The translations under genes and the position numbers were made by a program. Shown here one piece after another: positions 25,240 to 26,917 of a DNA stretch of 64,000 nucleotides. Within the stretch, counting starts at the first letter, position 1, and the number at the start of each line of letters is the position of its first letter. Source of the DNA: Escherichia phage PMBT57; sequence record MG770228.1; one strand, 5' to 3'. The notes under the pieces are model-generated. The model searched no databases, had not been told where the DNA came from, and saw nothing but the letters and a program-made list of their open reading frames with translations.

Positions 25240-25782
25240 CTATTCAAACAGTTTACGGTCAGAACGAATCTGGTTCCCCAGTTCAATCAGTTGGTTATCA
25301 CGGAGTCTAACAGTTGCCCTGAGTTCTTCAACCAAACGTCTGCCTTCTTCAAGACTTGAGTCGAGTCTGGCTGCATGGCTTGCAAGATTGAGGCATTGAG
25401 TGGTTCCGGTTGAGGCTTGACGTTTATAACTCTCGGCTCGTTTTTCTGACTGGAGCAACCGACTATTGTACTGGTTAGTAATAGAATCAATAACGACTTC
25501 ATAAGACTCTTTGGCTTTATCAAGTCGAAGGGTAAGTTGCCCGACTTCATAACTGTGTTCCCGATTCTTTTGGTCATAAGCCAGTTTTACTCTATCAAGT
25601 TCTTTTGAGTACTCCTTCTTATCTTCATCCCATAGTGCTTGAACTTTCTTTTCACCATGTTGTGAACCAAGAAGAAAAAGGGTAGCTCCCAGAGCTACCC
25701 CTCCCAAAAGACATACAGTTAACTTAATTAACGATGTCTTCATTACACCTCTCCAGAGGGACATTACCAATACGATTAGCAA
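25240..25782 (-). CDS. i-spanin (Rz-like): N-terminal TM helix plus coiled-coil
   Basis: N-terminal TM segment [22 protein letters not shown]; contains an embedded out-of-frame lipoprotein ORF. Confidence 0.6.
25287..25502 (-). CDS. o-spanin (Rz1-like) lipoprotein embedded in the i-spanin gene
   Basis: [16 protein letters not shown] signal peptide with lipobox, Pro-rich mature part; fully inside 25240-25782 in another frame. Confidence 0.55.
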   Translation of the reverse strand: MKSLLILLLTSTIVGCSSQKNEPRVINVKPQPEPLNASILQAMQPDSTQVLKKADVWLKNSGQLLDSVITN

Positions 25783-26350
25783 TCCATCCTGTAGTGTACT
25801 CAGGCATATTAAGAGATAAATAGTAGTTTAACTGTTTACCATCTAGAGACTTCAAAATGAGCTTACAGGCTTCTACTTTGCCTCGTTTATTCTGAAGGCT
25901 TTTATATGCACTTAGAGTTCCAGAACCGACTTTACCATCAACTTGTATTTTAGGGTAGTCTTTGCCATTTCTGGAGAAAGCATTAAGAGATTCTTGTAAC
26001 CAACGAGATGGTCTTGCAGGTCCAGTATTAACACCAGCATCTACTAGTTTTTCTGTTACCGCTGGTGATACATCTGCAAACTTAACAAAGCCAGGCTTCA
26101 AGATGTAATCGTTGTAATAAATACTTGATGCCATTTCCTGAGTTAAGTTCTTCATTGAACCATCCCAGTTATACATCGACTCTAGTTCTTGCTTATGCTT
26201 TTGAGCAACCTGAATAGTTACACCATGATTAGTTTCACCTCCTGGGTCTTTGGGGTCATTAACGTATCCACCCTCAACAGCAAATACAGCAGCAATGATT
26301 GCTGCAATAACCCCTCCAACACCGCCAACCTTCTTCTTACTTATTGCCAC
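25724..26350 (-). CDS. endolysin, GH108-type N-acetylmuramidase with N-terminal signal-anchor (SAR-like)
   Basis: EGGYVNDPKDPGGETNHGVT motif; N-terminal Gly/Ala-rich hydrophobic segment. Confidence 0.8.
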   Translation of the reverse strand: MAISKKKVGGVGGVIAAIIAAVFAVEGGYVNDPKDPGGETNHGVTIQVAQKHKQELESMYNWDGSMKNLTQEMASSIYYNDYILKPGFVKFADVSPAVTEKLVDAGVNTGPARPSRWLQESLNAFSRNGKDYPKIQVDGKVGSGTLSAYKSLQNKRGKVEACKLILKSLDGKQLNYYLSLNMPEYTTGWIANRIGNVPLERCNEDIVN

Positions 26351-26600
26351 ACCAATCCTCCTTTGGTTTCAAACGAACCAGTCGGCAAATAATATTCAGC
26401 ACAAAGAGTGCTATAGCAATGTTATTGCCATGTGGAATATCTTTGAGGATATGTTGGGGTAATGCAGAGAAAGAACTGGATAAGACATCCACACAAGAGA
26501 AGAACAATATTGCTAATGTGCTAATCTGAATAGATGCCCATTTCCAACAACGTTTCCAATTAGGAACCATTTCCACATGTTTGGTTAACTTGCGAACCAT
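26337..26600 (-). CDS. holin candidate with two predicted TM segments
   Basis: Internal Met start (MVRKL...) of ORF 26337-26666; sits directly upstream of the endolysin. Confidence 0.4.
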   Translation of the reverse strand: MVRKLTKHVEMVPNWKRCWKWASIQISTLAILFFSCVDVLSSSFSALPQHILKDIPHGNNIAIALFVLNIICRLVRLKPKEDWCGNK

Positions 26601-26917
26601 GCAAAAATCTCCCGTCTGGCAGCAGCCAGTATACCAATAATGATACCCGCTCCAGCCCATACCCATTTACCAAACAATCCAGCACCAACAACTTTGTGTT
26701 TGATGGTAATGAACTCTTCAATAGTAGGGGCAGACTCAGCCAGAGACTTTTCTACATTCTCTAGTCGAGTGTCCATCTTATTAATAGACAGTTGAAGGTT
26801 ACGTACAGCATCATCTAAATCTTGCCGAGATTTAGCATCACGGGCATTATTTTCGAAGAGTGTCTTCATACGTTCCTCCATTCGAGCTAGGAGCACCTCT
26901 ACGGATTCATGACTCAT
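26585..26917 (-). CDS. coiled-coil protein with C-terminal TM anchor (lysis-associated, antiholin candidate)
   Basis: ORF track; C-terminal hydrophobic VVGAGLFGKWVWAGAGIIIGILAAA. Confidence 0.45.
   Translation of the reverse strand: MSHESVEVLLARMEERMKTLFENNARDAKSRQDLDDAVRNLQLSINKMDTRLENVEKSLAESAPTIEEFITIKHKVVGAGLFGKWVWAGAGIIIGILAAARREIFAWFAS

Follow-up and report, generated by a model that had tools for sequence, protein, structure and literature searches.

The lysis cassette of coliphage N4 has been characterised in experiments described in a 2025 preprint (Awuah et al., bioRxiv 10.1101/2025.11.12.688109). There, the pinholin function of gp63 was established by complementation of an S21 defect and by a CCCP assay; gp63 complemented S21 but not S105, and killed cells when produced alone. 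The same preprint described gp62 as a non-essential, late-triggering holin that makes large holes, and gp61 as a SAR endolysin, which complemented in both holin and pinholin (hy21) backgrounds and leaked slowly when expressed alone. Purified N4 gp61 is cited there as having N-acetylmuramidase activity (Stojkovic & Rothman-Denes 2007, cited in bioRxiv 10.1101/2025.11.12.688109). Rapid-lysis mutations were located in the SAR domain of gp61, where Glu substitutions such as G12E lead to rapid lysis, and in the LIN domain of gp63 (bioRxiv 10.1101/2025.11.12.688109). With regard to the spanins, N4 is the type member of one family of embedded i-spanins and one of embedded o-spanins, where membership calls for 40% identity or more across no less than 40% of the periplasmic domain (Kongari 2018, PMC6139136).

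Assignment of the locus to the N4 lysis cassette

The sequence analysed here is a stretch of 64,000 nucleotides from Escherichia phage PMBT57 (MG770228.1), referred to as the window. Positions 25240-26917 on its minus strand correspond to the lysis cassette of coliphage N4, in the order gp63-gp62-gp61-gp60/gp60a, with the following features:

gp63, 26585-26917, minus strand: ORF of 110 aa, pinholin (lysis timer), identical to N4 YP_950541
gp62, 26337-26666, minus strand: holin with two TMDs, matching Pfam DUF7940 (E 3.5e-13) and PHROG 1356 'holin' (E 1e-27)
gp61, 25724-26350, minus strand: 208 aa with a GTG start, GH108 N-acetylmuramidase with PG_binding_3, SAR endolysin
SAR domain of gp61, 26276-26329, minus strand: residues 8-25, VGGVGGVIAAIIAAVFAV
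gp60, 25240-25743, minus strand: i-spanin of 167 aa, a CDS in NC_008720, MZ501049 and EF056009
gp60a, 25287-25502, minus strand: o-spanin in the +1 frame, wholly inside gp60, 71-aa precursor (ATG 25502)
Lipobox I-V-G-C of gp60a, 25455-25466, minus strand: Cys codon at 25457-25455, as read from the sequence

The PMBT57 window belongs to the species Enquatrovirus N4. DNA identity over 2 kb was 99.3% to N4 and 99.7% to VEc25, and the top matches for positions 1-25000 of the window were other isolates of the N4 species, with 98.6-99.3%. Similar to PMBT57, N4 (NC_008720 / EF056009) carries the cassette at the same locus and in the same gene order, and the two differ by fifteen nucleotide substitutions in 2 kb. 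The sole amino-acid change, R7G, concerns the 109-aa form of gp62, within its optional N-terminal extension; gp63, gp61, gp60, gp60a, and gp62 in its 87-aa form show 100% identity to their N4 reference counterparts. At this locus NC_008720 annotates an endolysin, a holin, and an Rz-like spanin, and this RefSeq record still lacks gp60a. In MZ501049 an i-spanin with an embedded o-spanin is annotated.

The locus is almost certainly a five-gene N4 lysis cassette, composed of a pinholin, a holin, a SAR endolysin, and an i-spanin with an embedded o-spanin. This reading is supported by database annotation, by the comparative analysis presented here, and by published experiments on identical proteins, and no evidence of substance speaks against it. 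A preliminary description, made from the letters of the sequence, had already placed a lysis cassette on the minus strand; every ORF that it described exists where it was placed, in agreement with annotation and experiments. The identity and function of gp61, gp60/gp60a, gp63, and gp62 have been shown by the experiments of others on identical proteins, and Summer et al. 2007 is among the sources named for the cassette. The present analysis established the sequence anatomy, the N4 identity, and the conservation of both reading frames.

The cassette itself was already known and experimentally characterised, and nothing in it is new. The locus serves as the type of the N4 family of embedded spanins and matters little as a discovery; its value is that of a positive control, in which a reading of the raw sequence recovered a real cassette, including an overlapping gene. 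It is also useful for the annotation of N4-like phages with respect to the overlap between gp61 and gp60 of 20 nt instead of 59, the role of gp63 as pinholin, and the two possible starts of gp60a. The label 'tape measure protein' is often wrongly given to homologues of gp63 in these phages, several records name gp63 itself 'tail length tape-measure protein', and gp60a is often missing from the annotation.

Pinholin, second holin and SAR endolysin

The first gene of the cassette, gp63, encodes a protein whose N-terminal part is a helical/coiled-coil cytoplasmic domain and whose C-terminus carries a TMD, which the hydropathy scan located at about residues 76-100. The preliminary description of a coiled-coil protein with a C-terminal membrane anchor was correct as to the ORF and the transmembrane segment; the function, which it left unstated, is that of the pinholin. 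This protein is the master timer of lysis, and its depolarising function is known from published experiments. The LIN domain comprises residues 62-72, and the translation of the PMBT57 gene is wild type at S62, T65, I70, T71, and I72. Profile searches matched gp63 to PHROG 5211 (E 3e-50) and gave no functional family match in Pfam or PHROG. An XhlA-like haemolysin or holin accessory was considered and rejected, since the match to PHROG 1193 'hemolysin' was weak (E 8.6e-4); no Pfam XhlA match was obtained at E up to 0.1.

The gene gp62 overlaps the 3' end of gp63 and has two candidate starts, ATG 26600, which gives the 87-aa form of RefSeq, and ATG 26666, which gives the 109-aa form used by Awuah et al. 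(bioRxiv 10.1101/2025.11.12.688109). The upstream extension of 22 codons is open in 6 out of the 11 sequences compared, the PMBT57 window included. Two hydrophobic segments were found by the hydropathy scan.

Following the RefSeq annotation, gp62 would be the main holin or pinholin and gp63 a mere accessory, an assignment that agrees with the PHROG 1356 'holin' match of gp62, with its two-TMD topology, which is like that of the phage 21 pinholin, and with the lack of a functional family match for gp63. We nonetheless consider it very unlikely. Deletion of gp62 leaves plasmid-driven lysis unaltered, gp63 by itself is able to complement the pinholin defect of S21 and to kill cells, and among more than 60 rapid-lysis isolates there were six gp63 alleles and not a single gp62 mutant (bioRxiv 10.1101/2025.11.12.688109). 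The candidate two-TMD holin of the preliminary description is thus a holin with two TMDs, as claimed, but it is non-essential and triggers late, and gp63 is the timer.

The endolysin gp61 is 100% identical to N4 YP_950539. Its residues 20-110 matched Pfam GH108 (PF05838) with 81.2 bits (cut-off 21.2; E 8e-23), which places the protein in the GH108 family, and PG_binding_3 (PF09374) was matched with 36.7 bits (E 5e-9). The EGGY...DPGG.T motif is present as E26-G-G-Y-V-N-D-P-K-D-P-G-G-E-T-N-H-G, in which E26 is presumably the catalytic Glu of GH108. All 12 endolysins in the alignment keep the EGGYV and GG.T positions; DPGG is shared by 11, and Erwinia phage S6 has DRGG instead.

The 18-residue SAR segment of gp61 has a mean Kyte-Doolittle hydropathy of 2.17 and a Gly+Ala content of 47%, as expected for a SAR domain, and lies between K5-K7 and E26, the Glu of the conserved EGGY motif. 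An equivalent domain was found in the endolysins of 10 out of 11 relatives, the exception being phage S6. The SAR-type GH108 endolysin proposed in the preliminary description is therefore borne out by the Pfam match, the Gly/Ala-rich N-terminal segment, and the published experiments on the identical protein.

Spanin genes and hairpins

The i-spanin gp60 matched PHROG 6197 'Rz-like spanin' (E 5e-68). It has the anatomy of an i-spanin, with a TMD at about residues 8-26 (mean Kyte-Doolittle hydropathy 2.15), followed by about 140 hydrophilic residues predicted to form the periplasmic domain.

The start of gp60 is likely ATG 25743, which has the Shine-Dalgarno sequence GGAGAGG 5 nt upstream and gives an overlap of 20 nt with gp61. 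An overlap of 59 nt between endolysin and i-spanin genes had been proposed; this figure holds for the longest ORFs (25724-25782), because the longest ORF was taken, with a TTG start at 25782, but not for the gene. A start at TTG 25782 would give an i-spanin of 180 aa, and the frame is indeed open from this position, with AGGA about 4 nt upstream. Such a start is highly improbable compared with ATG 25743, whose strong and well-spaced Shine-Dalgarno sequence accompanies the start used in all three annotated records, and for which Moo19, G7C, and KP8 have the same arrangement at the same position. Annotated endolysin/i-spanin overlaps among relatives are just 0-23 nt, and the 13 extra residues would add a second hydrophobic stretch before the TMD, unlike any relative. 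Moreover, the lone substitution between N4 and the window in the extension is synonymous in gp61 and changes T to I in the extension frame. The TTG start was dropped for ATG 25743 on the basis of the Shine-Dalgarno sequence, annotation, positional conservation, and this nonsynonymous difference.

The o-spanin gene gp60a ends 47 nt before the gp60 stop. Its start is ambiguous: ATG 25502 gives a canonical 15-residue signal, and ATG 25550, used in MZ501049, gives a precursor of 87 aa. With either start the mature protein has 56 aa, which is also the length in the published account (bioRxiv 10.1101/2025.11.12.688109). From its pattern and hydrophobicity, the 15-residue signal followed by C-S-S is predicted to be an SPII lipoprotein signal. 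The residue at position +2 of a lipoprotein (Asp versus other residues) governs its outer-membrane destination. With Ser rather than Asp at this position, gp60a is predicted to be sorted to the outer membrane. Searches for gp60a returned weak matches to the PHROG Rz-like spanin profiles (best E 7e-4) and no Pfam match.

The embedded o-spanin ORF with its lipobox was found intact in all 12 GenBank relatives, whose i-spanins are 33-58% identical to that of the window, and in all 40 IMG/VR loci examined. Full embedding in the i-spanin ORF was present in every relative scored for it, namely the 12 GenBank relatives and those 37 of the 40 IMG/VR loci that the script scored. In all 52 relatives the lipobox is at the same position, in the form of TAGC, LLGC, LSGC, LAGC, ISAC, and others; by inspection, the unusual lipoboxes INGC, LNAC, and LPGC were found in the IMG/VR loci L034, L047, and L052. 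Mature gp60a is 39-80% identical between the window and its relatives. The identity of gp60 to relatives is 44-79% in the doubly coding segment versus 18-46% in the singly coding periplasmic segment.

The embedded gp60a ORF is more than chance. That it is a chance, unexpressed frame, with the outer membrane disrupted by gp60 alone or by another factor, is effectively refuted: 8.5% of synonymous shuffles of gp60 yield an alternative-frame ATG ORF of at least 71 aa, and gp60a has the poor profile matches given above, but only 0.6% of 5000 synonymous-codon shuffles yield a lipoprotein-like embedded ORF, all 52 relatives retain the ORF, lipobox, and mature sequence, even where i-spanin identity is as low as 33%, conservation is raised in both frames of the overlap, and the gp60-gp60a construct fully complements lambda RzamRz1am (bioRxiv 10.1101/2025.11.12.688109). 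Hence the out-of-frame o-spanin with lipobox IVGC at 25287-25502, as first described, was found again in the ORF, the lipobox, and their conservation. Of the checks suggested at that time, the complementation of lambda lysis mutants has been published for identical gp60/gp60a, and the intactness of the embedded frame in relatives is as given above. Identical to the N4 type member, gp60 and gp60a fall within the Kongari families.

Two hairpins were observed in and next to the cassette:

Terminator-like hairpin with a T-run, 25675-25705, minus strand: in the TMD-coding 5' end of gp60, GGGAGGGGTAGCTC-TGG-GAGCTACCCTTTTT
Canonical intrinsic-terminator-like hairpin, 26933-26956, minus strand: gp64-gp63 intergenic, GAGCCGGG-TATC-CCCGGCTTTTT

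The gp64-gp63 hairpin is just upstream of the cassette and has a folding energy of -15.2 kcal/mol. The hairpin inside gp60 has a folding energy of -19.7 kcal/mol and exceeds synonymous shuffles in stability (p 0.007). Among eight Enquatrovirinae sequences, 98.9% of the cells are paired and compensatory double changes occur in 4 out of 11 pairs. N4, Moo19, G7C-like phages, and two metagenomic lineages all have it at this position, with substitutions that compensate each other. At the same place, KP8-like phages carry another hairpin with a T-run, despite a differing TMD sequence. No relevant report of a terminator mapped here in N4-like phages was found in a literature search.

It is possible, although we regard it as rather doubtful, that the hairpin inside gp60 is a selected RNA element, either a partial intrinsic terminator/attenuator or an mRNA-stabilising 3' structure. 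If so, it could determine, in Enquatrovirinae, how abundant holin and endolysin transcripts are relative to those of the spanin and of the downstream portal and structural genes. A promoter of the N4 virion RNAP was also considered and rejected for this hairpin; judging by its sequence, the stem-loop GTAGCTC-TGG-GAGCTAC appears unlike the early-promoter hairpins tabulated for KP8, which are centred on GCTCCGC, and it lies in the late region. A promoter scan of the cassette gave fewer sigma-70-like sites than shuffles, which says little because N4 late promoters are activated by the N4 SSB.

Proposed lysis mechanism and comparison with phage 21 and lambda

In the proposed mechanism, gp61 would be exported by Sec and held, inactive, at the inner membrane by its weakly hydrophobic Gly/Ala-rich SAR domain. 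Meanwhile, the C-terminally anchored pinholin gp63 would build up in the inner membrane, and its triggering would cause depolarisation, which would free gp61 to the periplasm, where the GH108 muramidase domain would degrade the murein. The two-TMD holin gp62 would trigger late and be dispensable, and probably helps the exit from lysis inhibition. With the murein gone, the spanin complex, formed by gp60 as a predicted type-II inner-membrane protein and gp60a as a predicted outer-membrane lipoprotein from the +1 frame in gp60, would fuse or disrupt the outer membrane. We infer the membrane-fusion step of the N4 spanins from the general spanin model.

The S21-R21-Rz/Rz1 cassette of phage 21 follows the same logic as that of N4, in which depolarisation by a pinholin leads to release of a SAR endolysin, followed by the action of an embedded two-component spanin. 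In addition, gp63 complements S21 and gp61 works with S21. However, there is no sequence relationship between the two cassettes, and gp63 and S21 share no family. S21 has two TMDs, in contrast to the N4 pinholin with its single C-terminal TMD and its long helical domain in the cytoplasm; the N4 endolysin is a GH108 muramidase, whereas that of phage 21 is T4-lysozyme-like. N4 further differs from phage 21 in its lysis inhibition and in having a second holin, which makes large holes.

Similar to N4, lambda Rz/Rz1 has the o-spanin entirely in the +1 frame of the i-spanin gene. In both phages the i-spanins are type-II proteins with an N-terminal TMD, the o-spanins are small lipoproteins with Pro in the N-terminal half, and the two pairs are functionally interchangeable (bioRxiv 10.1101/2025.11.12.688109). 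Nevertheless, they belong to different sequence families, the N4 pair to the N4 family of Kongari 2018 (PMC6139136). The sole periplasmic Cys of the gp60/gp60a pair is C117 of gp60, which is not conserved in JWAlpha, QDWS595, Holyagarpour, and S6. Mature N4 gp60a contains no Cys besides the lipid-modified one, whereas in lambda both subunits have disulfide-forming Cys.

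Identity of the lysis cassette

The ORF listing shows four tightly packed ORFs and one embedded ORF on the minus strand between positions 25240 and 26917, confirming the coordinates and descriptions of the ORFs given in the preliminary description.

Features of the lysis cassette
26917..26585, minus strand, gp63 (pinholin), 110 aa
26666 or 26600..26337, minus strand, gp62 (two-TMD holin), 109 or 87 aa
26350..25724, minus strand, gp61 (SAR endolysin), 208 aa, GTG start
25782 or 25743..25240, minus strand, gp60 (i-spanin), 180 or 167 aa
open from 25577, end 25287, minus strand, gp60a (o-spanin), in the +1 frame within gp60

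A megablast search of the phage collection with 25100-27100 found 14 records with at least 99% identity, all belonging to N4 or its species, including VEc25 (99.7%), Jura, SPSP, and AL25 (99.6%), AlfredRasser (99.5%), and N4 (99.3%). A search with positions 1-25000 gave the same pattern of matches to N4-species phages. The cassette maps to N4 gp60-gp63, flanked by the portal gene gp59 and by gp64, and the annotation of MZ501049 (AlfredRasser) adds an o-spanin embedded within the i-spanin. Side-by-side translation showed that gp63, gp61, gp60, and gp60a are 100% identical in the window and in N4. The sole amino-acid difference across the cassette is R7G, located in the 22 optional codons that extend gp62 at its N-terminus, and therefore the published N4 experiments apply directly to the window. 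The cassette is the known N4 system itself and no mere relative of it. Two families with 12 members each, one of embedded i-spanins and one of embedded o-spanins, have N4 as their type member (Kongari et al. 2018, PMC6139136). A passage of a recent preprint credits the bioinformatic identification of the spanins to Summer et al. 2007, and the muramidase to Stojkovic & Rothman-Denes 2007 (bioRxiv 10.1101/2025.11.12.688109).

Pinholin, holin and SAR endolysin

The main family matched by gp63 is PHROG 5211, whose function is unannotated, and the protein possesses a single C-terminal hydrophobic segment. A weak match to PHROG 1193 'hemolysin' (E 8.6e-4) was also detected. In several GenBank and RefSeq records, gp63 homologues, among them those of the fetched relative loci L004, L006, L009, and L013, are mislabelled as 'tail length tape-measure protein' or 'tape measure protein'. 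Experiments identify gp63 as pinholin and master timer of lysis; it complements S21 and not S105, is lethal alone, and has its rapid-lysis alleles concentrated at residues 62-72 (Awuah et al., bioRxiv 10.1101/2025.11.12.688109). The translated window is wild type at all reported gp63 rapid-lysis positions (S62, T65, I70, T71, and I72), and at the reported position G12 of gp61. From these residues, a lysis-inhibition-proficient phenotype would be predicted for the window phage.

The two-TMD protein gp62 matches DUF7940 and PHROG 1356 'holin', and corresponds to a non-essential large-hole holin triggering after about 2 h (Awuah et al., bioRxiv 10.1101/2025.11.12.688109). Its earlier assignment as a holin candidate is retained, as a non-essential and late one, while the pinholin and timer is gp63, to which no function had been given. 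The 22-codon extension that separates the 109-aa from the 87-aa form of gp62 (26601-26666, minus strand) overlaps the conserved gp63 TMD in an alternative frame. Six of the 11 sequences compared, counting the window, have the extension open and with a start codon; in Moo19, RiverRider, Paxi, and Holyagarpour it is closed. Being open in just these six, the extension gives equivocal comparative support to the 109-aa form; it may be a dual-start (antiholin-type) motif.

The endolysin gp61 matches Pfam GH108 with 81.2 bits (cut-off 21.2), and also Pfam PG_binding_3. Its N-terminus consists of KKK-VGGVGGVIAAIIAAVFAV, followed immediately by the conserved EGGY motif. With 47% Gly+Ala and a mean Kyte-Doolittle hydropathy of 2.17, this weakly hydrophobic segment shows the features of a classic SAR domain, in line with the SAR-type GH108 endolysin proposed earlier. 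Of 11 diverged N4-like endolysins, 10 possess a comparable segment; the one exception is the GH108 endolysin of Erwinia phage S6 (locus L014, 403-942). The S6 cassette is also organised differently, with an extra 176-aa gene between endolysin and i-spanin. Together, the two features suggest that this lineage has switched to lysis by a soluble endolysin.

Spanin genes and associated hairpins

The i-spanin gp60 matches PHROG 6197 'Rz-like spanin' (E 5e-68) and has a single, N-terminal hydrophobic segment. The 59-nt overlap with the endolysin gene claimed before holds only for the longest ORF, starting with TTG at 25782; with the ATG at 25743 it is reduced to 20 nt, and the overlaps annotated in relatives measure 0-23 nt. 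GGAGAGG lies at proper spacing before this ATG, which three records annotate as the start and which keeps its position, together with the SD, in Moo19, G7C, and KP8. Between TTG and ATG, N4 and the window differ by one substitution, silent in gp61 and changing T to I in the putative gp60 extension. On these grounds the TTG start was rejected.

The signal segment of gp60a is followed by CSS, with Ser at +2, and the mature protein of 56 aa ends 47 nt short of the gp60 stop codon. It matches PHROG Rz-like o-spanin families only weakly (best E 7e-4), as expected for so short a protein. Judged from sequence, the embedded gene is real on three lines of evidence. First, a lipoprotein-like embedded ORF arose in only 0.6% of 5000 synonymous-codon shuffles of gp60. 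Second, tblastn with gp60 found 158 phage records, and all 12 relatives fetched (i-spanin identity 33-58%; hosts Shigella, Escherichia, Klebsiella, Achromobacter, Burkholderia, Erwinia, Xanthomonas, Alcaligenes, Stenotrophomonas, and Pseudomonas) possess a fully embedded +1-frame ORF whose lipobox occupies the same position and whose mature sequence is recognisably homologous (INVKPK.EPLS). The embedded lipobox ORF was also present in 40/40 IMG/VR loci, 37 scored by script and three carrying the atypical lipoboxes INGC, LNAC, and LPGC. Third, identity to relatives is 44-79% in the portion of gp60 doubling as mature gp60a and only 18-46% in the singly coding periplasmic portion, and mature gp60a is itself 39-80% identical; such a pattern is expected of two overlapping genes, both under selection. 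The o-spanin embedded in the i-spanin gene is therefore upheld, with its lipobox signal present and its frame intact across relatives. Regarding its start, translation from 25502, which has a weak AAGAG upstream, would yield a textbook lipoprotein signal of 15 residues, and 25550 is used in MZ501049; in G7C and Moo19, too, an ATG precedes the lipobox Cys by 31 codons. Mature gp60a is identical with either start.

A terminator-like 14-pair hairpin followed by TTTTTCTTCTT (25705..25675, minus strand; -19.7 kcal/mol) lies at about codons 13-23 of gp60, in the TMD-coding 5' end. Moo19, G7C-like phages, and two metagenomic lineages carry a hairpin with a T-rich tail at the same codons, with different stem sequences, and KP8-like phages have a different GC hairpin and T-run there, although their TMD sequence differs. 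In an alignment of eight Enquatrovirinae sequences, 98.9% of cells pair and 4 of 11 pairs are altered on both sides; these values were reached by at most 1 of 500 shuffles, and slid controls fell to 41-61% paired. Native hairpins were stabler than synonymous-codon resamplings in N4, Moo19, G7C, and the relative loci L017 and L019 (p 0.003-0.013), an effect not seen in many more distant relatives. Compensatory substitutions that would keep the hairpin in position across Enquatrovirinae are only suggestive, since the sample is small and phylogenetically shallow. The hairpin could act as an attenuator or a terminator, or form an mRNA 3' structure; some records carry an automatic 'terminator' annotation at the site (row H34 of the gp60 tblastn matches). 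Immediately upstream of the cassette, the gp64-gp63 intergenic region contains a canonical GC-rich terminator-like hairpin, GAGCCGGG-TATC-CCCGGC followed by TTTTT (26933-26956, minus strand; -15.2 kcal/mol), which was missing from the output of the consensus scan.

Lysis pathway and comparison with lambda

The best-supported mechanism is the pinholin/SAR-endolysin/spanin pathway described for N4, where the identity and roles of all five proteins have been established experimentally (bioRxiv 10.1101/2025.11.12.688109). In this pathway, gp61 would be exported, and its SAR domain would keep it membrane-bound and inactive. Triggering of gp63 would collapse the membrane potential, and the release of gp61 would lead to murein degradation. 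The gp60-gp60a complex, spanning the periplasm, would then be freed to disrupt the outer membrane, with a fusion step presumed from the general spanin model. gp62 would serve as a late back-up, and probably also as exit route from lysis inhibition.

The sole periplasmic Cys of the N4 spanin pair is C117 of gp60 (25393-25395), which is replaced in JWAlpha, QDWS595, Holyagarpour, and S6. Mature gp60a (25290-25457) has no Cys besides the lipid-modified one. The N4 pair differs from the lambda spanins, in which intermolecular disulfides in both subunits matter (PMC6139136).
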